The notes under the pieces: generated by a model
What the model was told of the DNA's origin: nothing
Database searches by the model: none
The model's input: only the letters and a program-made list of their open reading frames with translations
From: Eledone cirrhosa
Lineage: Eukaryota
Assembly (NCBI GenBank): GCA_964016885.1
Contig: OZ024746.1
Location: forward strand, 49,786,001-49,850,000
Reading direction: 5' to 3'
DNA: 64,000 nt
Shown here: positions 23,152 to 64,000 of the stretch, in pieces
How the letters are laid out: every line of letters begins with the position of its first letter
Numbering within the stretch: the stretch's first letter is position 1
Position numbers and translations under genes: made by a program

Positions 23152-23187
<36 letters not shown>

Positions 23188-23307
23188 TATAGACATAGGA
23201 TATTCGAAAATATTCTGTATGTTTATAATAAACATTTTGAAGACCTAATCGCTATAGAATAGAATACGTCACGTATTACAATTAGATTCTCGATAAAAGC
23301 AAGGGAA

Positions 23308-23350
23308 GTAATCTACGCGTTTCATTCTCGTTAGAAATCATCAGGACTAC
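23308..23350 (-). ncRNA. Minimal type I HHR of the 310-bp unit (first of 8 minus-strand copies, every 310 bp to 25478-25520)
   Basis: Reverse complement of the 25860-25902 motif. Confidence 0.85.
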
Positions 23351-25859
23351 ATATCCAGTGCTTTTATCGAGAATGACACAGCTAGAGACTTATAGAATAC
23401 TTAGCTGTGTACAGGAACTGGTTTGAAAGAGCGGTTGCCGGTCCGGCAGAAATTAGAAATTGGAATAAATGCTCTGAAATAGCGATATATATGTGAATAT
23501 AGACATAGGATATTCGAAAATATTCTGTATGTTTATAATAAACATTTTGAAGACCTAATCGCTATAGAATAGAATACGTCACGTATTACAATTAGATTCT
23601 CGATAAAAGCAAGGGAAGTAATCTACGCGTTTCATTCTCGTTAGAAATCATCAGGACTACATATCCAGTGCTTTTATCGAGAATGACACAGCTAGAGACT
23701 TATAGAATACTTAGCTGTGTACAGGAACTGGTTTGAAAGAGCGGTTGCCGGTCCGGCAGAAATTAGAAATTGGAATAAATGCTCTGAAATAGCGATATAT
23801 ATGTGAATATAGACATAGGATATTCGAAAATATTCTGTATGTTTATAATAAACATTTTGAAGACCTAATCGCTATAGAATAGAATACGTCACGTATTACA
23901 ATTAGATTCTCGATAAAAGCAAGGGAAGTAATCTACGCGTTTCATTCTCGTTAGAAATCATCAGGACTACATATCCAGTGCTTTTATCGAGAATGACACA
24001 GCTAGAGACTTATAGAATACTTAGCTGTGTACAGGAACTGGTTTGAAAGAGCGGTTGCCGGTCCGGCAGAAATTAGAAATTGGAATAAATGCTCTGAAAT
24101 AGCGATATATATGTGAATATAGACATAGGATATTCGAAAATATTCTGTATGTTTATAATAAACATTTTGAAGACCTAATCGCTATAGAATAGAATACGTC
24201 ACGTATTACAATTAGATTCTCGATAAAAGCAAGGGAAGTAATCTACGCGTTTCATTCTCGTTAGAAATCATCAGGACTACATATCCAGTGCTTTTATCGA
24301 GAATGACACAGCTAGAGACTTATAGAATACTTAGCTGTGTACAGGAACTGGTTTGAAAGAGCGGTTGCCGGTCCGGCAGAAATTAGAAATTGGAATAAAT
24401 GCTCTGAAATAGCGATATATATGTGAATATAGACATAGGATATTCGAAAATATTCTGTATGTTTATAATAAACATTTTGAAGACCTAATCGCTATAGAAT
24501 AGAATACGTCACGTATTACAATTAGATTCTCGATAAAAGCAAGGGAAGTAATCTACGCGTTTCATTCTCGTTAGAAATCATCAGGACTACATATCCAGTG
24601 CTTTTATCGAGAATGACACAGCTAGAGACTTATAGAATACTTAGCTGTGTACAGGAACTGGTTTGAAAGAGCGGTTGCCGGTCCGGCAGAAATTAGAAAT
24701 TGGAATAAATGCTCTGAAATAGCGATATATATGTGAATATAGACATAGGATATTCGAAAATATTCTGTATGTTTATAATAAACATTTTGAAGACCTAATC
24801 GCTATAGAATAGAATACGTCACGTATTACAATTAGATTCTCGATAAAAGCAAGGGAAGTAATCTACGCGTTTCATTCTCGTTAGAAATCATCAGGACTAC
24901 ATATCCAGTGCTTTTATCGAGAATGACACAGCTAGAGACTTATAGAATACTTAGCTGTGTACAGGAACTGGTTTGAAAGAGCGGTTGCCGGTCCGGCAGA
25001 AATTAGAAATTGGAATAAATGCTCTGAAATAGCGATATATATGTGAATATAGACATAGGATATTCGAAAATATTCTGTATGTTTATAATAAACATTTTGA
25101 AGACCTAATCGCTATAGAATAGAATACGTCACGTATTACAATTAGATTCTCGATAAAAGCAAGGGAAGTAATCTACGCGTTTCATTCTCGTTAGAAATCA
25201 TCAGGACTACATATCCAGTGCTTTTATCGAGAATGACACAGCTAGAGACTTATAGAATACTTAGCTGTGTACAGGAACTGGTTTGAAAGAGCGGTTGCCG
25301 GTCCGGCAGAAATTAGAAATTGGAATAAATGCTCTGAAATAGCGATATATATGTGAATATAGACATAGGATATTCGAAAATATTCTGTATGTTTATAATA
25401 AACATTTTGAAGACCTAATCGCTATAGAATAGAATACGTCACGTATTACAATTAGATTCTCGATAAAAGCAAGGGAAGTAATCTACGCGTTTCATTCTCG
25501 TTAGAAATCATCAGGACTACATATCCAGTGCTTTTATCGAGAATGACACAGCTAGAGACTTATAGAATACGAGAATGAAACGCGTAGATTACTTCCCTTG
25601 CTTTTATCGAGAATCTAATTGTAATACGTGACGTATTCTATTCTATAGCGATTAGGTCTTCAAAATGTTTATTATAAACATACAGAATATTTTCGAATAT
25701 CCTATGTCTATATTCACATATATATCGCTATTTCAGAGCATTTATTCCAATTTCTAATTTCTGCCGGACCGGCAACCGCTCTTTCAAACCAGTTCCTGTA
25801 CACAGCTAAGTATTCTATAAGTCTCTAGCTGTGTCATTCTCGATAAAAGCACTGGATAT

Positions 25860-25902
25860 GTAGTCCTGATGATTTCTAACGAGAATGAAACGCGTAGATT
25901 AC
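25860..25902 (+). ncRNA. Minimal type I HHR of the 310-bp unit (first of 5 plus-strand copies: 25860, 26170, 26480, 26790, 27100)
   Basis: GUAGUC-CUGAUGA-UUUCU AACG AGAAU-GAAA-CGCG-UA/GAUUAC; predicted cleavage after 25896; closed by a 16-bp helix 25836-25851/25909-25924. Confidence 0.85.
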
Positions 25903-27295
25903 TTCCCTTGCTTTTATCGAGAATCTAATTGTAATACGTGACGTATTCTATTCTATAGCGATTAGGTCTTCAAAATGTTTATTATAAACATACAGAATAT
26001 TTTCGAATATCCTATGTCTATATTCACATATATATCGCTATTTCAGAGCATTTATTCCAATTTCTAATTTCTGCCGGACCGGCAACCGCTCTTTCAAACC
26101 AGTTCCTGTACACAGCTAAGTATTCTATAAGTCTCTAGCTGTGTCATTCTCGATAAAAGCACTGGATATGTAGTCCTGATGATTTCTAACGAGAATGAAA
26201 CGCGTAGATTACTTCCCTTGCTTTTATCGAGAATCTAATTGTAATACGTGACGTATTCTATTCTATAGCGATTAGGTCTTCAAAATGTTTATTATAAACA
26301 TACAGAATATTTTCGAATATCCTATGTCTATATTCACATATATATCGCTATTTCAGAGCATTTATTCCAATTTCTAATTTCTGCCGGACCGGCAACCGCT
26401 CTTTCAAACCAGTTCCTGTACACAGCTAAGTATTCTATAAGTCTCTAGCTGTGTCATTCTCGATAAAAGCACTGGATATGTAGTCCTGATGATTTCTAAC
26501 GAGAATGAAACGCGTAGATTACTTCCCTTGCTTTTATCGAGAATCTAATTGTAATACGTGACGTATTCTATTCTATAGCGATTAGGTCTTCAAAATGTTT
26601 ATTATAAACATACAGAATATTTTCGAATATCCTATGTCTATATTCACATATATATCGCTATTTCAGAGCATTTATTCCAATTTCTAATTTCTGCCGGACC
26701 GGCAACCGCTCTTTCAAACCAGTTCCTGTACACAGCTAAGTATTCTATAAGTCTCTAGCTGTGTCATTCTCGATAAAAGCACTGGATATGTAGTCCTGAT
26801 GATTTCTAACGAGAATGAAACGCGTAGATTACTTCCCTTGCTTTTATCGAGAATCTAATTGTAATACGTGACGTATTCTATTCTATAGCGATTAGGTCTT
26901 CAAAATGTTTATTATAAACATACAGAATATTTTCGAATATCCTATGTCTATATTCACATATATATCGCTATTTCAGAGCATTTATTCCAATTTCTAATTT
27001 CTGCCGGACCGGCAACCGCTCTTTCAAACCAGTTCCTGTACACAGCTAAGTATTCTATAAGTCTCTAGCTGTGTCATTCTCGATAAAAGCACTGGATATG
27101 TAGTCCTGATGATTTCTAACGAGAATGAAACGCGTAGATTACTTCCCTTGCTTTTATCGAGAATCTAATTGTAATACGTGACGTATTCTATTCTATAGCG
27201 ATTAGGTCTTCAAAATGTTTATTATAAACATACAGAATATTTTCGAATATCCTATGTCTATATTCACATATATATCGCTATTTCAGAGCATTTAT

Positions 27296-27301
<6 letters not shown>

Positions 27302-27733: not shown

Positions 27734-28038
27734 ATAAATTGAAACAAAATGAAAACGAAATTTCATTTCTCACTCTTAGTATGGCACTTACTTAAATGTA
27801 AGTATGCATGTATACGTACATACATATATGTATACAGACGTACAGTAGCATGCACATATATATATATATATATACATATATACATACATATGCATACAGG
27901 TACACATACATATATGCACGTATCAGTTTAGCGGCGCTAACGTCGCTTTGTTCGTTTGTAAACAAACTGAACAGCCTGAATTTATGCCATACGGTGTTAA
28001 GGCAACCACGTCACCTTTTTGTTCAACACTGACACAGG

Positions 28039-28083
28039 AACGATGTACTAGTTTCAAGCTTGTTAGCTATCATCAGCACCGTT
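28039..28083 (-). ncRNA. Minimal type I HHR of the 468-bp unit (minus copies at 28039, 28507, 28975, 33412)
   Basis: Reverse complement of the 29462-29506 motif. Confidence 0.85.
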
Positions 28084-29461
28084 TACCCATCTGCCAGATA
28101 GTTGAACGTTCGAAAGTATATACTTTCCTTATGAAAATTAACGGCTGAGCAGCCTAATTTGCATATTGAGTGAGTTAAATCGGTCAGGCATACCGAAAAC
28201 GATAAATTGAAACAAAATGAAAACGAAATTTCATTTCTCACTCTTAGTATGGCACTTACTTAAATGTAAGTATGCATGTATACGTACATACATATATGTA
28301 TACAGACGTACAGTAGCATGCACATATATATATATATATATACATATATACATACATATGCATACAGGTACACATACATATATGCACGTATCAGTTTAGC
28401 GGCGCTAACGTCGCTTTGTTCGTTTGTAAACAAACTGAACAGCCTGAATTTATGCCATACGGTGTTAAGGCAACCACGTCACCTTTTTGTTCAACACTGA
28501 CACAGGAACGATGTACTAGTTTCAAGCTTGTTAGCTATCATCAGCACCGTTTACCCATCTGCCAGATAGTTGAACGTTCGAAAGTATATACTTTCCTTAT
28601 GAAAATTAACGGCTGAGCAGCCTAATTTGCATATTGAGTGAGTTAAATCGGTCAGGCATACCGAAAACGATAAATTGAAACAAAATGAAAACGAAATTTC
28701 ATTTCTCACTCTTAGTATGGCACTTACTTAAATGTAAGTATGCATGTATACGTACATACATATATGTATACAGACGTACAGTAGCATGCACATATATATA
28801 TATATATATACATATATACATACATATGCATACAGGTACACATACATATATGCACGTATCAGTTTAGCAGCGCTAACGTCGCTTTGTTCGTTTGTAAACA
28901 AACTGAACAGCCTGAATTTATGCCATACGGTGTTAAGGCAACCACGTCACCTTTTTGTTCAACACTGACACAGGAACGATGTACTAGTTTCAAGCTTGTT
29001 AGCTATCATCAGCACCGTTTACCCATCTGCCAGATAGTTGAACGTTCGAAAGTATATACTTTCCTTATGAAAATTAACGGCTGAGCAGCCTAATTTGCAT
29101 ATTGAGTGAGTTAAATCGGTCAGGCATACCGAAAACGATAAATTGAAACAAAATGAAAACGAAATTTCATTTCTCACTCTTAGTATGGCACTTACTTAAA
29201 TGTAAGTATGCATGTATACGTACATACATATATGTATACAGACGTACAGTAGCATGCACATATATATATATATATATACATATATACATACATATGCATA
29301 CAGGTACACATACATATATGCACGTATCAGTTTAGCGGCGCTAACGTCGCTTTGTTCGTTTGTAAACAAACTCACTCAATATGCAAATTAGGCTGCTCAG
29401 CCGTTAATTTTCATAAGGAAAGTATATACTTTCGAACGTTCAACTATCTGGCAGATGGGTA

Positions 29462-29506
29462 AACGGTGCTGATGATAGCTAACAAGCTTGAAACTAGTAC
29501 ATCGTT
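29462..29506 (+). ncRNA. Minimal type I HHR of the 468-bp unit (first of 8 plus copies, every 468 bp to 32738)
   Basis: AACGGUG-CUGAUGA-UAGCU AACA AGCUU-GAAA-CUAG-UA/CAUCGUU; predicted cleavage after 29499; stem I extends via CUGGCA/UGUCAG and GUUCAAC/GUUGAAC. Confidence 0.85.
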
Positions 29507-32500
29507 CCTGTGTCAGTGTTGAACAAAAAGGTGACGTGGTTGCCTTAACACCGTATGGCATAAATTCAGGCTGTTCAGTTTGTTTACAAACGAACAAAGC
29601 GACGTTAGCGCCGCTAAACTGATACGTGCATATATGTATGTGTACCTGTATGCATATGTATGTATATATGTATATATATATATATATATGTGCATGCTAC
29701 TGTACGTCTGTATACATATATGTATGTACGTATACATGCATACTTACATTTAAGTAAGTGCCATACTAAGAGTGAGAAATGAAATTTCGTTTTCATTTTG
29801 TTTCAATTTATCGTTTTCGGTATGCCTGACCGATTTAACTCACTCAATATGCAAATTAGGCTGCTCAGCCGTTAATTTTCATAAGGAAAGTATATACTTT
29901 CGAACGTTCAACTATCTGGCAGATGGGTAAACGGTGCTGATGATAGCTAACAAGCTTGAAACTAGTACATCGTTCCTGTGTCAGTGTTGAACAAAAAGGT
30001 GACGTGGTTGCCTTAACACCGTATGGCATAAATTCAGGCTGTTCAGTTTGTTTACAAACGAACAAAGCGACGTTAGCGCCGCTAAACTGATACGTGCATA
30101 TATGTATGTGTACCTGTATGCATATGTATGTATATATGTATATATATATATATATATGTGCATGCTACTGTACGTCTGTATACATATATGTATGTACGTA
30201 TACATGCATACTTACATTTAAGTAAGTGCCATACTAAGAGTGAGAAATGAAATTTCGTTTTCATTTTGTTTCAATTTATCGTTTTCGGTATGCCTGACCG
30301 ATTTAACTCACTCAATATGCAAATTAGGCTGCTCAGCCGTTAATTTTCATAAGGAAAGTATATACTTTCGAACGTTCAACTATCTGGCAGATGGGTAAAC
30401 GGTGCTGATGATAGCTAACAAGCTTGAAACTAGTACATCGTTCCTGTGTCAGTGTTGAACAAAAAGGTGACGTGGTTGCCTTAACACCGTATGGCATAAA
30501 TTCAGGCTGTTCAGTTTGTTTACAAACGAACAAAGCGACGTTAGCGCCGCTAAACTGATACGTGCATATATGTATGTGTACCTGTATGCATATGTATGTA
30601 TATATGTATATATATATATATATATGTGCATGCTACTGTACGTCTGTATACATATATGTATGTACGTATACATGCATACTTACATTTAAGTAAGTGCCAT
30701 ACTAAGAGTGAGAAATGAAATTTCGTTTTCATTTTGTTTCAATTTATCGTTTTCGGTATGCCTGACCGATTTAACTCACTCAATATGCAAATTAGGCTGC
30801 TCAGCCGTTAATTTTCATAAGGAAAGTATATACTTTCGAACGTTCAACTATCTGGCAGATGGGTAAACGGTGCTGATGATAGCTAACAAGCTTGAAACTA
30901 GTACATCGTTCCTGTGTCAGTGTTGAACAAAAAGGTGACGTGGTTGCCTTAACACCGTATGGCATAAATTCAGGCTGTTCAGTTTGTTTACAAACGAACA
31001 AAGCGACGTTAGCGCCGCTAAACTGATACGTGCATATATGTATGTGTACCTGTATGCATATGTATGTATATATGTATATATATATATATATATGTGCATG
31101 CTACTGTACGTCTGTATACATATATGTATGTACGTATACATGCATACTTACATTTAAGTAAGTGCCATACTAAGAGTGAGAAATGAAATTTCGTTTTCAT
31201 TTTGTTTCAATTTATCGTTTTCGGTATGCCTGACCGATTTAACTCACTCAATATGCAAATTAGGCTGCTCAGCCGTTAATTTTCATAAGGAAAGTATATA
31301 CTTTCGAACGTTCAACTATCTGGCAGATGGGTAAACGGTGCTGATGATAGCTAACAAGCTTGAAACTAGTACATCGTTCCTGTGTCAGTGTTGAACAAAA
31401 AGGTGACGTGGTTGCCTTAACACCGTATGGCATAAATTCAGGCTGTTCAGTTTGTTTACAAACGAACAAAGCGACGTTAGCGCCGCTAAACTGATACGTG
31501 CATATATGTATGTGTACCTGTATGCATATGTATGTATATATGTATATATATATATATATATGTGCATGCTACTGTACGTCTGTATACATATATGTATGTA
31601 CGTATACATGCATACTTACATTTAAGTAAGTGCCATACTAAGAGTGAGAAATGAAATTTCGTTTTCATTTTGTTTCAATTTATCGTTTTCGGTATGCCTG
31701 ACCGATTTAACTCACTCAATATGCAAATTAGGCTGCTCAGCCGTTAATTTTCATAAGGAAAGTATATACTTTCGAACGTTCAACTATCTGGCAGATGGGT
31801 AAACGGTGCTGATGATAGCTAACAAGCTTGAAACTAGTACATCGTTCCTGTGTCAGTGTTGAACAAAAAGGTGACGTGGTTGCCTTAACACCGTATGGCA
31901 TAAATTCAGGCTGTTCAGTTTGTTTACAAACGAACAAAGCGACGTTAGCGCCGCTAAACTGATACGTGCATATATGTATGTGTACCTGTATGCATATGTA
32001 TGTATATATGTATATATATATATATATATGTGCATGCTACTGTACGTCTGTATACATATATGTATGTACGTATACATGCATACTTACATTTAAGTAAGTG
32101 CCATACTAAGAGTGAGAAATGAAATTTCGTTTTCATTTTGTTTCAATTTATCGTTTTCGGTATGCCTGACCGATTTAACTCACTCAATATGCAAATTAGG
32201 CTGCTCAGCCGTTAATTTTCATAAGGAAAGTATATACTTTCGAACGTTCAACTATCTGGCAGATGGGTAAACGGTGCTGATGATAGCTAACAAGCTTGAA
32301 ACTAGTACATCGTTCCTGTGTCAGTGTTGAACAAAAAGGTGACGTGGTTGCCTTAACACCGTATGGCATAAATTCAGGCTGTTCAGTTTGTTTACAAACG
32401 AACAAAGCGACGTTAGCGCCGCTAAACTGATACGTGCATATATGTATGTGTACCTGTATGCATATGTATGTATATATGTATATATATATATATATATGTG

Positions 32501-33020
32501 CATGCTACTGTACGTCTGTATACATATATGTATGTACGTATACATGCATACTTACATTTAAGTAAGTGCCATACTAAGAGTGAGAAATGAAATTTCGTTT
32601 TCATTTTGTTTCAATTTATCGTTTTCGGTATGCCTGACCGATTTAACTCACTCAATATGCAAATTAGGCTGCTCAGCCGTTAATTTTCATAAGGAAAGTA
32701 TATACTTTCGAACGTTCAACTATCTGGCAGATGGGTAAACGGTGCTGATGATAGCTAACAAGCTTGAAACTAGTACATCGTTCCTGTGTCAGTGTTGAAC
32801 AAAAAGGTGACGTGGTTGCCTTAACACCGTATGGCATAAATTCAGGCTGTTCAGTTTGTTTACAAACGAACAAAGCGACGTTAGCGCCGCTAAACTGATA
32901 CGTGCATATATGTATGTGTACCTGTATGCATATGTATGTATATATGTATATATATATATATATATGTGCATGCTACTGTACGTCTGTATACATATATGTA
33001 TGTACGTATACATGCATACT

Positions 33021-33823
<803 letters not shown>

Positions 33824-39649: not shown

Positions 39650-40029
39650 TACCGCTTGCGACTGCTGTTTTCTCGTCTGTGTAAATGAGGTGATTAATCT
39701 CATTTGCATATGAAGCTGCATAAGTTGGCTCAACTTATAACAGAAAAGAAATAAGATTTCGCTTCAAGCTTTATACAATATATATATATTCTCGGCTGTC
39801 TTCTAGTCCAACAGTCGCAAGCGGTGGGAGGGATCGTCCTGACGAAGGCCAGTTCAGCCTGAAATGCATAGACGGTTGTCCCCCTTGCTTCTGCTGGACA
39901 TCACCAGAGGACATTAGCCCCCCGGTGTTTGCATAGCTACGGCTTCCTAAAACCGTATTTCTTTGGAGATACGAAATTTCTATACATATTGTATAAAGCT
40001 ATGCTTGAAGCGAAATATTATTTCTTTTA
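39650..40029 (+). mobile_element. Solo HHR element (39789-40029) with inverted rearranged partial copy on its left (39650-39780)
   Basis: ACCGCTTGCGACTG vs CAGTCGCAAGCGGT and TTTCGCTTCAAGC vs GCTTGAAGCGAAA are reverse complements. Confidence 0.7.
39832..39877 (+). ncRNA. Minimal type I hammerhead ribozyme
   Basis: GAUCGUC-CUGACGA-AGGC CAGUUCA GCCU-GAAA-UGCA-UA/GACGGUU; stem I extends via GCAAG/CUUGC, GUCCA/UGGAC, UGUCUUCU/AGAGGACA. Confidence 0.85.
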
Positions 40030-54279: not shown

Positions 54280-56200
54280 AAACCCACCACCTTAGCAACT
54301 TCATTGATACCCTTCTCAAGCCTTTTCTCAAACATATCAAAAGCTATATAAAGGACGAACTAGATATGCTCAATGTGGCTGGATAATTACCACAATGAAC
54401 TCCCTCAACGCATCAAAAAAGAATTCGTGATAGAGGGACTCAAATTTATCTTGGAGAACAATTACTTCGTTTTCAATAACAAACCCTACAGGCAGAAATC
54501 TGGGACAGCTATGGGAACGAAAACAGCCGCCACTTATGCCAACCTAGTCATGGGATACCTGGAAATCACCCTCTACACTAAAGTCCTAAACAAATTTGGA
54601 AACACTCTCCACTTACACATAGAAAGGAACTGGAAGCGATATCTAGATGACTGCTTCATCCTTTAGCACGAAAACATCGAGAAACTTAAAGAATTTCACA
54701 CCCTTATAAATGGGCTCAACAAGAAAATTAACTTCACGATGGAATACAGCCATCAACAACTCCTCTTCCTCGACATCCTCATTAAGATTCATAACAAAAA
54801 AATAGAAACAGACATATACTACAAGCCCACAGACTCCAAGCAATATCTCCCTTTCAACTCTTGCCACCCTAGACACGTTAAAATTAATATTCCCTAGAAC
54901 TTAGCCAAGAGAATCTGTACTATAGTCTCCAATAAAAACACCTGCTACTTACGGCTACAAGAACTAAAGGACACACTCATAGGCAGGGACTACCCTGCAT
55001 CACTAATTGACAATGGAATCCAACGTGCCCCAAAACTCAGTACCCAGGATCTTAGACAGCCTAAAGTAAATCAATCTAAACTAAAAGCTCTTCCATACAT
55101 CTCCACACACAAACCCTCAACAATGAGGCCTTTGACACCATCCTCCAGAACATCCCTGTGTTGAAAAAGGACCATAGAATGAACCAAATCCTACGAACAC
55201 ACGATATCATAAATAGCAAAAGACAATCTAAGTCAATGAAAAACATCCTAACACATGCCAAAGTACTGCCAACCACAACAACGAAACTCACAGTAAAAAA
55301 ATAAGATAGAACCAACTGTGGCATATGCATCAACCTAATAGAGGGTTCGGAATTCTATTTCAAAGAAGGACAACGTTTTATAGTAAAACACAATTTCACA
55401 TGCGCATCAGAAAATCTAATATATGTATTAACTTGCTCAGGTTGTCGAGAACAATACATAGGCCAGACCAAAAACATGACTGTCCATAGATCCCAAATTA
55501 AAATACGGGAATACAGGAAAATACCACTGAGTGAACACATTGATACCTGTGCCGCCCCAAATCATCCCAACTTCAGAATCTTTCCCCTCTACAAATTTAA
55601 AGATAATGCCACCCACACCCAGCGCATCAGCAAGGAATCTCACTTTATTAACAAATACGGACCCCGTCTAAACACTTCTCCCTAAGACGAACCCACAACA
55701 TACACACGTCAACATAGATACCTATATCAGCATACATCTCTATCCACATATAAACACAATGACATACGTAAACACACATGTTCTATGGTGCAACACAAAT
55801 ATACACAAATTTGCATACCTTTTGATGTCTATAGATATAAACGTGCCCACACACACACATGCATAAACGCACACATGTATTGCACACTGATGGGCACATA
55901 CATATTTGTACACAAGTATTCCAATACGGCAAGGCCTAATGGATTCCCCTTGCAGTACGTACAATCTGGACACTCACACACACCTTGGTATTATGCCAAT
56001 ACTATATATCATTTCACACCTTTTATTATTAAGGTTTTTTATGTTGTATTGAGAGAATCGTTTTTACTGAAAACATCGAATAATGTATACCATTTTACCA
56101 GTATCACAAAAATACTGGTCCACCCCCACACACACACACACATTATCACACACACACATATATACACACACACATACACACGCGTACATTAACATACAAA

Positions 56201-57054: not shown

Positions 57055-59680
57055 AGAGTGGGGTGGTGGTGGGGAACGACGTTTAGGGCATAAGCCCTTC
57101 TTCAGGTGAAAAGTGTGTGGGAAGAGAGTTCAAAGGGTGTGTAGGGGAGTGGTGGAGAGACATATAGCGAAAAGGGGTGGGAGGAAACGGTGCGAATGAA
57201 ATTAAAAATAAAAGCATGATCAAAATAAAATTAAAATGGGGTAAAACAGGTGGTGGAAGGGTGTGGGGCGTGTAGGGGTGGTGGCGGCTGGAGTGGGGAG
57301 AGGGAGACGGGGTGTCCAAGCGGGGAGGGCTGAAGGTGGTGTGTGTGTAGGTGTACGTGTGTGTGTGTGTGTGTATGTGAAAGCAAGGGTTGGGGGAAGA
57401 ACGGGGTTGCATGTTCAGGAAGAGGTGTGTGTGGGGTGGGGTGTAGGGTGGAGTGTGTGTGCGTGTGTGGATAGAGAGGGGAGAATCAGGAGGCTGAATG
57501 TGTAAATATGTGGTGGAATGCACGTGTGTGTGGTGTTTAAGCGTGTTGTGGGTGTAGGCGGCGAGTGGCAAAAAACATTTTTTTGGGGTATGTGTTTGGG
57601 TGAGTCGTAAAGGTGATTCCGTAAGATGTGGTGGAAAGGTTGGTAAAATCCTTGGATGGTAGTTGATTCCGCGGTCAAGGTCCACATACGAGTAATCCGT
57701 GAAGAGATTGGTCGGAAGAGGGGAGATGTGGGGGTGCGCGCGCAACAGGAAGTGGTCAAGGCAGTAGGAGTGCTGTGTGTCTGTGTGTGCTGGGAGGTGG
57801 TCAGAGGGCTAGCAGCAGGAGGGTGGAATGGTAAAGGGGCGAGGATGGGTAGGTGTGAAAGTTGGAGTGAGAAGGGGGTGTGTGTGTGTATTAGTAGAGG
57901 TGTTAGTGGGATGAGTGAGTGTTAGAGAAAGGGTGTGATTGGAGCGGGGAGAGAAGGGTGTGGGAGTCGATGGAGGGAGTGTGGTGTACTGGTGTGTCTG
58001 TAGTTTCATGAAGGGGGTGTTAGTGGGTGTTAGTATACGGGAGGTGGAGAAAGGGTTGAATGCGGGTGTGAGTGGGGGTTAGTGGTGTTAGGATGTGTAG
58101 AGTTGGTGGTGTAAGAGGGTGTGTGCGTACGTGTGCGTGGGGTTGGGGGGTGTTAGTGATGTTAGTGGCGTGTATGGTGGGTGGTGTTAGTGGGTGCGTG
58201 TGTTCGTGTGCTTGGGGTCAGGGGGTGTTAGTGATGTTAGTTGCGGGGTGGTGGGGTGGATGTGTGTGGGTGAGGGTTAGTGGTGGTAGTAGGGTGTGTG
58301 TTTAGTGGGAGCGCGTGTATATATGTGCCGGTGGGTGTGTGCGTGTGATAAGGAGGGGGAGGAGAAGAAAGGAGGGATGTTAGTGTGTTAGTTGGGGAAG
58401 AGTGGTCGGATGAGGGGTGGAGTGGAGGTGTTAGTATTGTTAGTTGTGGGGTGGGCGGTGAAAAGGAGGGGTGTGTTAGTGGTGTTAGTGGGGGATACGT
58501 GTGGGGGGAGGGGCCGGTCGAAGGCGAAAGGAATAAGGGTGGGGAGTTCAGGCCGGGGGGAGTGTGGGTCTGTAAGATGAAGATGGTTCCGCCAGGCGAC
58601 GTCCCGTCTGTCCGACGTAAGTCGCGCTGCGCCTCGTGGACAGTACGGGCGCAGGTGAGAGCGGTGTGGACGAGAGAGGAGGGGTAACCTCTGCGGATGA
58701 AATGGCTGACTAGGGAAAGGGCCTGGGACTCGAAGTCAGCATCTCGGCTACAGAGACGGCGGTTCCTGAGGAGTTGGGAGTAGGGAATAGAGTGTTTAGT
58801 GTGTGTGGGGTGGGAAGAGGTGAAGTCGAGGTAAGAGTGGGAGTCGGTGGGTTTGAAGAAGGCGGAGGTGACGAGGGAGTGGTGGGAGGGGTCGAAGGCG
58901 ACGGAGATGTCTAAGAAGTGGACGTGGGTTGTGGAGATAGAGGTGGTGAAGTGGAGGGAAGGGTGGAAGGCAGAAGAAGGAGAGAAAGGAGTCGAGCTGT
59001 TCTCGGGTGAGGGTCGTAGCTCCGATACAGACGTCGATGTAACGACCGTACAGTTCGGGCGTGGGGCCGGTGTACTGGGCAAAGATTTGGGCCTCAACAT
59101 GGCCAACAAAAAGGTTGGCATAGTTCGGGCCCATTCTTGTACCCATGGCTACCCCCGTGACCTGTTGGTAAAACTCACCCGAAAAGGAGAAACAATTGAG
59201 GGTGAGGACCAGCTCGGCGAGGCGAAGGAGGGTGGGGTTGGAGGGAATGGGGGAGGGACGAAGGTCAAGGTAGTGTTTGAGGGCGCGTAGGCCGTCAACG
59301 TGGGGGAAGACGGTATAGAGGGACTTGATGTCTAGGGTGAAGAGGAAGGGCTGTGGGCCGGGTGGGTAGGTGAAGGAGTCGAAAAGGCGCAGGGCGTGGT
59401 TGGTGTCGGAGATGTGGGAGGGGAGGGTGGTGACAAGGGGGGGCGAGGATGGAGTCGAGAAAGGCGGAGATGAGTTCGGTGGGGCAGTTGCAAGCGGAGA
59501 CGATGGGGCGGCCGGGGTTGTCGGGTTTGTGGAGTTTGGGAAGGAAGTAGATGGTGGGGGTGCGGGGGGTGCGGACGATGAGGTGGGAAGCGGTGGGGGG
59601 AAGGAGGGAGGAGGAGACAAGGTGTTGGATGGTGGAGGAAACTTGTTGTTGGTAGAGGGGTGTGGGATCGGAGGGTAGAG

Positions 59681-61722: not shown

Positions 61723-61774
61723 ATATATAGATTTCAAGGAACATAGAGTCATAACCTGAAGTTAAAGCATTATA

Positions 61775-62515
61775 TATGTTAACTTAATGGTATCAGTTTT
61801 AGGAAATGATATTTGTAAGAAGGAAAGCCAAATTATGTAGTTCATTAGTAGTAGAATATTAATTATAGGTTAACTAAATTAAAAATAGTTTATATATTAA
61901 TTTCTAAAGTGTATATTAATTAGGTTTTTAATATTTAAAGCAGAATTATGTAGTTCATCAGTAGTAGAATATTAATTATAGGTTAACTAAATTAAAAATA
62001 ATTATATATGTTTACTTAATGGTATCAGTTTTAGGAAATGATATTTGTAAGAAGGAAAGCCAAATTATGTAGTTCATCAGTAGTAGAATATTAATTATAG
62101 GTTAACTAAATTAAAAACAGTTTATATATTAATTTCTAAAGTGTATATTAATTAGGTTTTTAATATTTAAAGCAGAATTATGTAGTTCATCAGTAGTAGA
62201 ATATTAATTATAGGTTAACTAAATTAAAAATAATTATATATGTTTACTTAATGGTATCAGTTTTAGGAAATGATATTTGTAAGAAGGAAAGCCAAATTAT
62301 GTAGTTCATCAGTAGTAGAATATTAATTATAGATTAACTAAATTAAAAACAGTTTATATATTAATTTCTAAAGTGTATATTAATTAGGTTTATAATATTT
62401 AAAGCAGAATTATGTAATTCATCAGTAGTAGAATATTAATTATAGGTTAACTAAATTAAAAATAATTTATATATTAATTTCTAAAGTGTATATTAATTAG
62501 GTTTATAATATTTAA
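61775..62515. repeat. 232-bp (dimeric) tandem repeat in PLE 3' UTR, including duplicated ORF stop region
   Basis: AGGAAATGAT at 61801, 62033, 62265. Confidence 0.85.
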
Positions 62516-62897
62516 AGGTTTTTCTCAGTTTATGATTACACGATATTATTAATTCCTGTCGCTTATTTAATAGGATATCCTTAGATTTCATTATTTCGAA
62601 AAGTTCTTGGGAACACAATCTACATTCATTTCTACTATTTTGATAAAGGGTGGCCCTTTTGAGCACACTCCAGGTCAGGTCATATTCTATATTCCTCTTT
62701 CTATAACTATTAATTATTTCAGCTAGAGATGTTGTATTAGCTAGTGCGGCATTTTTAAAACTATGTTTGTGGGTATTAAATCTTACCTTAAAATTGTTAG
62801 AGGTAGCTCCTAAATATGAATAAATAGAGTCCTTAGTGTTAACTTTACATTTATATATTATGTTATTAACAAGGCAATTTCCTTTTAATGGACAGTT
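62493..62897 (-). CDS. PLE GIY-YIG endonuclease domain (Naiad-like), 134 codons open, 5'-truncated
   Basis: Hand translation: NCPLKGNCLVNNIIYKC..SYLGATSNNFKVRFNTH..CRLCSQE..LLNKRQELIISCNHK; absent from the ORF track because it has no start codon. Confidence 0.85.
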   Translation of the reverse strand, partial: NCPLKGNCLVNNIIYKCKVNTKDSIYSYLGATSNNFKVRFNTHKHSFKNAALANTTSLAEIINSYRKRNIEYDLTWSVLKRATLYQNSRNECRLCSQELFEIMKSKDILLNKRQELIISCNHKLRKTFKYYKPN

Positions 62898-62985: not shown

Positions 62986-63016
<31 letters not shown>

Positions 63017-63018
<2 letters not shown>

Positions 63019-64000
63019 ACTCTGATACTGGTTCAGTCTGGTTCAAACTGAATTGGTCTGTCCCAGTCATTCATTGAGCAACATCGGTGAAGTTGGCACC
63101 CTTAACTCACAGTTGGGTGCGGATGCATTCATGTATATATGTGTGTGTCCGCGTGTATCTGTGTGTTTCTAAATATATTAATAACTCCCTCTGGTCGAGC
63201 AATCTTTGAAGTGTGGGGACAACTGGAAAGCTTCCATTACTCATACTTCTCGCCTTCTTCACTACCTCTTCTGCGGCCTCGATGTGAATACCCCCTCCGC
63301 CTCCGTGGTATTTTCTTCGTGGTTATAAGAGGCTTAGCTCTGTTTCTCGACCGTTGTATCGCGTGACTATCTCCCCCTCCGCCTTTTGGGATTCTTTCTC
63401 ACGTCGTGTAGACGCGTTCTTGAGACTAGTAAAATGAGGTATCCTCTTGATAAGTCGGCAGACCTCGCAAGGACTCTATATCTTTGATATATTGTTTTTG
63501 TTTATGCCACGAAACTACGTAGTCGAGGAATTTAGGAACAGTTTAGGTATGATACATTTTATTACTAATTATATCTAAATGTTTCTTCTCTCTTCATAAT
63601 GTATTTTTAACTCTGATACTGGTTCAGTCTGGTTCAAACTGAATTGGTCTGTCCCAGTCATTCATTGAGCAACATCGGTGAAGTTGGCACCCTTAACTCA
63701 CAGTTGGGTGCGGATGCATTCATGTATATATGTGTGTGTCCGCGTGTATCTGTGTGTTTCTAAATATATTAATAACTCCCTCTGGTCGAGCAATCTTTGA
63801 AGTGTGGGGACAACTGGAAAGCTTCCATTACTCATACTTCTCGCCTTCTTCACTACCTCTTCTGCGGCCTCGATGTGAATACCCCCTCCGCCTCCGTGGT
63901 ATTTTCTTCGTGGTTATAAGAGGCTTAGCTCTGTTTCTCGACCGTTGTATCGCGTGACTATCTCCCCCTCCGCCTTTTGGGATTCTTTCTCACGTCGTGT
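63017..64000 (+). mobile_element. Retrozyme-like tandem array, 591-bp unit (1.66 units visible, runs off the window)
   Basis: 63017 repeats at 63608 with no visible difference; starts at (TA)n; contains an HHR. Confidence 0.88.
63442..63529 (+). ncRNA. Type I HHR, U3:A8 core variant, 57-nt stem II region
   Basis: UCCUC-UUGAUAA-GU(C)GGCA...UGCCAC-GAAA-CUACGUAG-UC/GAGGA; predicted cleavage after 63524. Confidence 0.8.

Follow-up and report, generated by a model that had tools for sequence, protein, structure and literature searches.

A 591-bp tandem unit with a U3:A8 hammerhead in Eledone cirrhosa, probably a high-copy non-autonomous Penelope-like element

Background

Retrozymes have been described as non-autonomous derivatives of Penelope-like elements with units of 51-972 bp, and in Xenopus 24 of 57 families are related to the terminal repeats of autonomous elements, while cleavage was found for one of nine retrozyme dimers (bioRxiv 10.64898/2026.07.22.740005). 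The first-described non-LTR retrozymes measured 170-400 nt (PMC7229834). Natural U3-A8 hammerheads have been reported, such cores having earlier been shown to be active in vitro, and pseudoknots are present in about 40% of hammerheads (PMC3088659). The Cercyon Penelope-like elements of Schistosoma carry a U3-A8 core (about 1,300 matches) and a palindromic helix III, for which a circle model was proposed and low activity was observed in vitro (PMC4209133). More generally, Penelope-like elements possess a 30-40-bp tail, often at one end only, and use (TA)n targets (PMC8557442). In the green anole Poseidon element PAc, the tail lies between two internal start sites, extension occurs on both strands and a dimer is predicted; in vitro, its ribozyme cleavage is protein-assisted and dispensable for insertion, with uncut RNA as the main substrate (PMC11167929).

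The window analysed here is a stretch of 64,000 nucleotides from Eledone cirrhosa (GCA_964016885.1, contig OZ024746.1, 49,786,001 to 49,850,000, forward strand), in a genome of 3.0 Gb. Extended positions continue the window numbering into neighbouring DNA.

Results

The 591-bp array and its locus

A preliminary description had reported a 591-bp array, and the period is exact, since 393 of 393 positions match in the window part of the array. Followed into the neighbouring DNA, the array ends at extended position 64951, is flanked by (TA)n on both sides and lacks any inversion at this locus. It consists of three full copies plus 162 bp (3.27 copies, 100% identical, 63017-64951 in extended coordinates), and only its first hammerhead lies inside the window. 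The features of the locus are as follows:

62986-63016 (no strand): 5′ flanking (TA)n microsatellite, the target
63017-63607 (+): unit 1, 591 bp, 42% GC, no open frame beyond 86 codons (stop to stop)
63017-63178 (+): ‘tail’ segment (unit 589-162, 165 nt in all), + strand folded, z -3.9
63178 (+): family 3′-end site B, last base of the tail, a putative reverse-transcription start; loose ends of run X4 lead into (TA)n
63596-63604 (+): nine unpaired bases ending at site A
63604 (+): family 3′-end site A (unit 588), a putative reverse-transcription start; loose ends of run X4 lead into (TA)n
63608-64000 (+): unit 2, truncated at the window edge; the array continues to extended 64951, ending at unit position 162
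From extended 64952: second (TA)n tract, 3′ of the array

The earlier reading of a retrozyme-like unit with a type I hammerhead is supported. As in non-LTR retrozymes (PMC7229834; bioRxiv 10.64898/2026.07.22.740005), the unit is tandem and non-coding with a single type I hammerhead, which is present in each of the three complete identical units, and the likeness extends to a GC content below 50%, thousands of copies, a strongly self-paired monomer (z -6.2 for the whole 591 nt, 30 shuffles) and co-occurring autonomous Penelope-like elements. No open frame for a reverse transcriptase plus GIY-YIG was found in the 591-bp unit. Note that an apparent coding remnant (an endonuclease C-terminus and an ATG in stem II) was rejected, neither being kept in an older subfamily. 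The unit had also been called unusually large, which does not hold, given the published 51-972 bp, even though 591 bp is above the 170-400 nt of the first examples. Further differences from these retrozymes are the U3:A8 core, the 57-nt stem II region with its predicted pseudoknot and a circular RNA that is here only predicted.

The hammerhead core and stems

The motif as previously drawn (UUGAUAA core, stems I to III, GUC and a 57-nt stem II region) was confirmed in place, and two predicted elements adjoin it:

63435-63440 (+): 5′ strand of a predicted 6-bp pseudoknot, pairing with 63462-63467 in the stem II internal loop
63442-63446 (+): stem I, 5′ strand, 5 bp, pairing with 63525-63529 (7 bp in the older subfamily)
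63447-63453 (+): catalytic core U3 U4 G5 A6 U7 A8 A9, with the U3:A8 pair at 63447 and 63452
63454-63510 (+): extended stem II region, 57 nt, with a base of 5-6 bp and one bulged C, an internal loop, then a 13-bp interrupted hairpin at 63468-63500
63511-63524 (+): G12 A13 A14, palindromic stem III and C17 (GAAA 63511-63514, palindrome 63514-63523, GUC 63522-63524)
63525-63595 (+): downstream hairpin, a predicted off-switch, whose base (63525-63529 with 63591-63595) excludes stem I

The G10.1-C11.1 pair corresponds to 63454/63510, the cut site is predicted after 63524 (C17), and the palindromic stem III can, as modelled, pair between two copies. The structure was assessed on an alignment of 72 distinct copies, in which the younger ones had been chosen by patterns containing the core. 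The U3:A8 pair is present in 71 of these copies and U3.G8 in the remaining one, G10.1-C11.1 and C17 in all 72, and A15.1-U16.1 in 70. The three helices, with helix I open, are paired in 96.9%, 98.3% and 97.7% of cells, helices I and III showing little covariation. For the segment alone, the nested ribozyme fold (-21.5 kcal/mol) lies 1.1 kcal/mol from the lowest-energy fold (-22.6 kcal/mol), and its stability is not unusual (z -0.06 and z -1.06 in two computations).

Rfam gave no match at the gathering threshold across the window, and on the unit, at E up to 10, six matches with no hammerhead family among them. This silence says little, because Rfam also failed to report the canonical-core hammerheads at other places in the window. 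In addition, the earlier warning that CUGANGA searches overlook a U3:A8 hammerhead is justified. In practice, a minimum of two families in this genome, each with about 6,000 copies, escape such searches. A close described layout is that of Schistosoma mansoni Cercyon (PMC4209133), which shares the U3-A8 core, the long bulged helix II, the short helix I and a palindromic helix III for dimer action.

Predicted pseudoknot, stem II and downstream hairpin

The complete named structure is 97.1% paired on the 72 copies, compared to 34-55% for slid controls, and 24 double-change cells were observed against 3.3 in shuffles. Two-sided change is nevertheless confined to 3 of 33 pairs, a value reached by 139 of 500 shuffles, and the copies are related. 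Most of the variation in the inner stem II hairpin keeps the pairing, as an example with C-G in 32, U-A in 19 and U.G in 19 copies at one pair. The pseudoknot is 94.9% paired, and two-sided change is absent in five of its six pairs. Its outer pair is U-A in 41 copies, U.G in 27, C-G in 2 and otherwise in 2, and genome-wide G stands opposite in 166 of 173 copies with C. This variation amounts to two single steps on one lineage, making the support for the pseudoknot suggestive and short of proof. Pseudoknotted hammerheads such as the human C10orf118 type I (PMC3088659) likewise have base pairs linking the sides of stems I and II; in the 591-bp unit the partner is the internal loop of a long stem II, an arrangement for which figures or supplements of that paper may hold an exact match.

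The downstream hairpin starts directly 3′ of the cut site and is folded on the + strand (z -4.0), in contrast to the minus strand (z 0.0). It was present, on the + strand only, in 7 of 9 copies tried across subfamilies, the other two not being parsed. When it is included, the off fold reaches -44.3 kcal/mol and the nested ribozyme -39.3 kcal/mol. On modelled energies, the pseudoknot (-6.9 kcal/mol) and the stem III dimer helices (-12.9 kcal/mol), both computed as duplexes, could offset this advantage. Altogether, the predicted pseudoknot and off-hairpin provide a compact, testable model for switching an animal type I hammerhead.

Family size, conservation and the U3:A8 pair

A pattern of the core plus stem II found 6,322 exact matches genome-wide (none for the reversed control), dispersed in short tandem and inverted sets, and 6,889 when C or U was allowed at position 3 and A or G at position 8. 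The same genome-wide patterns gave no match for a C3:G8 relative of the 591-bp family. Beside the 6,889 family matches, single mutants at positions 3, 8 and 7 number 14, 14 and 11; they are equally rare, position 7 being a normally free core position, and such counts represent decay after insertion and do not single out the 3:8 pair. The preliminary description held that C3 and G8 had changed together. Our results support the fixed U3:A8 pair and leave the joint change unsupported, given the absent C3:G8 member and the equal single-mutant counts: a step from C3:G8 to U3:A8 is not witnessed in this family, and ‘changed together’ could be deduced from the general consensus only. Nor is a U3:A8 core surprising, as had been hinted, since natural cases are published (PMC3088659, PMC4209133) and this genome holds a second family with 6,196 matches.

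The proposal that the motif is under selection fared better. An older subfamily was fetched by the tail sequence, hence without selection for the core. Its copy L036 is identical to the window unit at 437 of 601 columns (73% overall). Agreement reaches 53 of 55 when the core, stem I, stem III, the base of stem II and the pseudoknot are taken together, and is 113 of 166, 192 of 252 and 49 of 75 (65-76%) outside the motif. U3 and A8 are kept in all 33 aligned older copies, which had been chosen by another part of the unit. The motif is thus under selection, with U3:A8 fixed and the core and stems nearly unchanged in a subfamily whose overall identity is only 73%. In the contigs of four public runs (of an unrecorded kind, contigs only), 1 of 29 common variant sites falls inside 63430-63530, and that variant keeps a pair.

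Insertion footprints

The family has two fixed 3′ ends, separated by 165 nt: insertions stop either at unit 588 or close to 162 and then continue into (TA)n, whereas their 5′ ends are variable. The (TA)n follows nearly all 3′ ends at both sites, as for an AT-rich or microsatellite target, and Penelope-like footprints were found, namely 5′ truncation, partial tandems, an inverted 5′ copy and a tail at one end. This matches PAc (PMC11167929) and the general Penelope-like architecture (PMC8557442), which likewise have a ‘tail’ lying between two internal start sites and present at one end only, targets rich in AT, partial tandems and an inverted 5′-truncated copy. Unlike these elements, the 591-bp family has a tail of 165 nt, not 30-40, and no open frame. 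It adds genomic counts to them, namely a rule of one site per arm and a haplotype common to both arms.

Among 24 inverted insertions of the younger subfamilies (distinct loci, overlapping or duplicated ones counted once), 22 have one arm ending at each site (160-170 and 581-589), two have one odd end and none uses the same site twice; the hand-computed chance of 22 mixed arms out of 22 at even odds is about 2e-7. In the older subfamily, 19 of 22 are mixed, two same-site and one odd; this set was chosen for having the tail, so that the null is two thirds mixed and the hand-computed p is about 0.01. The 14 single-arm insertions end at 588 (8), near 162 (4, the window locus being one of these) or elsewhere (2). 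Full units differ by a median of one base within a locus (range 0-12, 32 pairs) and of 13 bases between young loci (293 pairs). Of 20 loci, 18 were usable, and in all of these the two arms differ from each other by less than the median difference to other loci; in 15 the value does not exceed the minimum. On these comparisons, both arms share one haplotype. They would come from a single RNA molecule, or a single source locus, with more than one unit, and the simplest such template is a circle. Fold-back copying of the first cDNA was rejected for L018 (arms of 1243 and 936) and L068 (1196 and 1465), since at neither locus is an arm short enough to have been copied from the other.

Most insertions run through intact cut sites. 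At L020:830-1210, a young member of the family interrupts an older, inverted one, so the same AT-rich sites have been used more than once. Minus-strand counts of 5′ ends beside (TA)4 gave 53 in unit 508-525 (2.9 per base), 47 in 480-507 (1.7), 68 in 432-477 (1.5) and 34 in 525-543 (1.8), to be read with the caveat that the anchors differ between intervals and that TA microhomology makes hot spots. Starts at unit 509-510 account for 7 of 44 distinct loci among the matches listed. The mild bump just 3′ of the cut site, with no sharp pile, is a weak hint that cleavage, stalling of the reverse transcriptase or microhomology would each fit. Runs X1 and X2 contain one-turn contigs of 620-621 bases, fitted equally by a circle, a tandem transcript or trace DNA. 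Being large and young, with its two ends far apart, the family offers countable footprints of the Penelope-like insertion mechanism, namely one site per arm, two arms that each exceed a unit, and one haplotype.

Autonomous Penelope-like elements

No autonomous element with a similar terminal repeat was found in 30 of 150 scored GIY-YIG loci and 12 further loci with long frames. An autonomous Penelope-like element at L115 (G000:C1:145869500-145877500) has a 938-codon frame with RVT_1 and GIY-YIG; the terminal repeats of its family carry their own compact U3:A8 hammerhead, with 6,196 matches genome-wide. This family, too, ends in (TA)n, and its two end sites are separated by about 66 nt. Likeness to the 591-bp unit is limited to short end motifs, and we regard the family as a candidate mobiliser and no more. 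Within the window, a broken reverse-transcriptase remnant at 54376-55425 (-) is 66% identical to the L115 frame. Another one lies at 58500-59678 (-), which we take by its motifs to be Penelope-like. A U3:A8 hammerhead candidate was also noticed at L109:2205, 3′ of a GIY-YIG match.

Discussion

We consider it likely that the window array was inserted recently and belongs to a high-copy non-autonomous Penelope-like element, that is, a non-LTR retrozyme, arising by the mechanism proposed below. The sequence, copy number, conservation and ends were observed, and point to a real, selected hammerhead in an abundant element. Strand-specific folding suggests that the + strand is the transcribed one. 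The type I U3:A8 hammerhead would cut after 63524, aided by the pseudoknot that joins the leader of stem I to the internal loop of stem II, and pairing of the stem III palindrome between two copies would probably aid cleavage. Once about 70 further bases are transcribed, the hairpin would capture the 3′ strand of stem I and turn the ribozyme off, so that a monomer circle, or a multimer left uncut, would be protected. An autonomous Penelope-like element would supply the RT/GIY-YIG protein that nicks (TA)n DNA and starts copying at unit 588 or 162, writing tandem copies as it goes round a circle or runs along an uncut multimer. Inverted forms, whose ends are as observed, would be produced by priming from both target strands, with one site each.

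How much of this depends on a circle is where the most serious competing explanation departs. It retains the element class, with a weak or protein-dependent ribozyme, copies derived from uncut linear multimers without circular RNA, and a hammerhead that serves mainly as a conserved fold or trims read-through transcripts; we see it as possible but rather unlikely. The intact cut sites read through in most insertions speak for it, as do the advantage of about 5 kcal/mol for the off-hairpin, the mainly uncut RNA used by the anole element (PMC11167929), the weak in vitro activity of animal Penelope-type hammerheads (PMC4209133) and 5′ ends that form only a mild bump, not a sharp pile, at the cut site. 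All catalytic positions are nevertheless kept across 27% divergence, and the pseudoknot and stem II changed in pair-preserving ways, both as expected if catalysis matters. Arms of more than one unit on both sides sharing one haplotype are also simplest on a circle, though not exclusive to it.

In a less probable explanation, the unit would be the terminal repeat of an as yet unfound autonomous Penelope-like element and the copies merely truncated. Published retrozymes are often related to such repeats (24 of 57 Xenopus families; bioRxiv 10.64898/2026.07.22.740005), and our partner search covered 42 loci of the 10,596 first-look GIY-YIG candidates in the genome. We hold it improbable, as units abut one another without a gap, as many as five in an array, and at the loci read the open frame of an element continues from neither end, the frames of the unit itself not exceeding 86 codons. 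A minisatellite of the usual kind, which DNA recombination has spread and which resembles a hammerhead by chance, could explain the ordinary stability of the ribozyme segment and the lack of a hammerhead match in Rfam. This is highly implausible in view of the fixed 3′ ends into (TA)n, the ragged 5′ ends, the one-site-per-arm inversions, the thousands of dispersed loci, and a conservation that is selective for exactly the hammerhead positions.

Within the preferred reading of a non-autonomous Penelope-like insertion, we tentatively put forward a more specific proposal, on balance doubtful: a regulated ribozyme switch (pseudoknot on, hairpin off) would make a stable 591-nt circle, and each inverted insertion would be the product of a dimeric Penelope reverse transcriptase copying one RNA from two sites 165 nt apart, one per nicked strand. 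If this is true, the tails, tandems and inversions of Penelope-like elements would reflect one mechanism, different from L1 twin priming and from fold-back copying.

As for novelty, the U3:A8 pair and the unit size are already known, and what distinguishes the family is the combination of pseudoknot, long stem II, off-hairpin, 165-nt tail and arm statistics. No count of a one-site-per-arm rule and no such ribozyme layout was found in the literature covered, outside which most subscription journals lie, and a matching ribozyme architecture may be present in figures or supplements of the cited papers.

Other hammerheads and repeats in the window

Several other repeats of the window carry hammerhead motifs. 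The 310-bp array at 23175-27301, with an inversion at about 25570 and (TA)n at both ends, has one CUGAUGA hammerhead per unit (13 found) with U.U at 10.1-11.1 and a palindromic stem III, and on these motifs we classify it as another retrozyme-like family. A 468-bp array at 27734-33022 shows the same layout, with an inversion at about 29370 and a CUGAUGA hammerhead once per unit; 11 were found, and a further copy lies near 33449. Just upstream of the 591-bp array, an AT-rich 232/113-bp array (61769-62517) contained no hammerhead by motif scan. Single canonical-core candidates occur at 39839, 56792 (+) and 61642 (-). Finally, a hammerhead-like motif at 53440-53410 (-) has the U3:A8 core UUGAAAA, lies about 137 bases before a (TA)n tract and is distinct from both the 591-bp and the L115 families.
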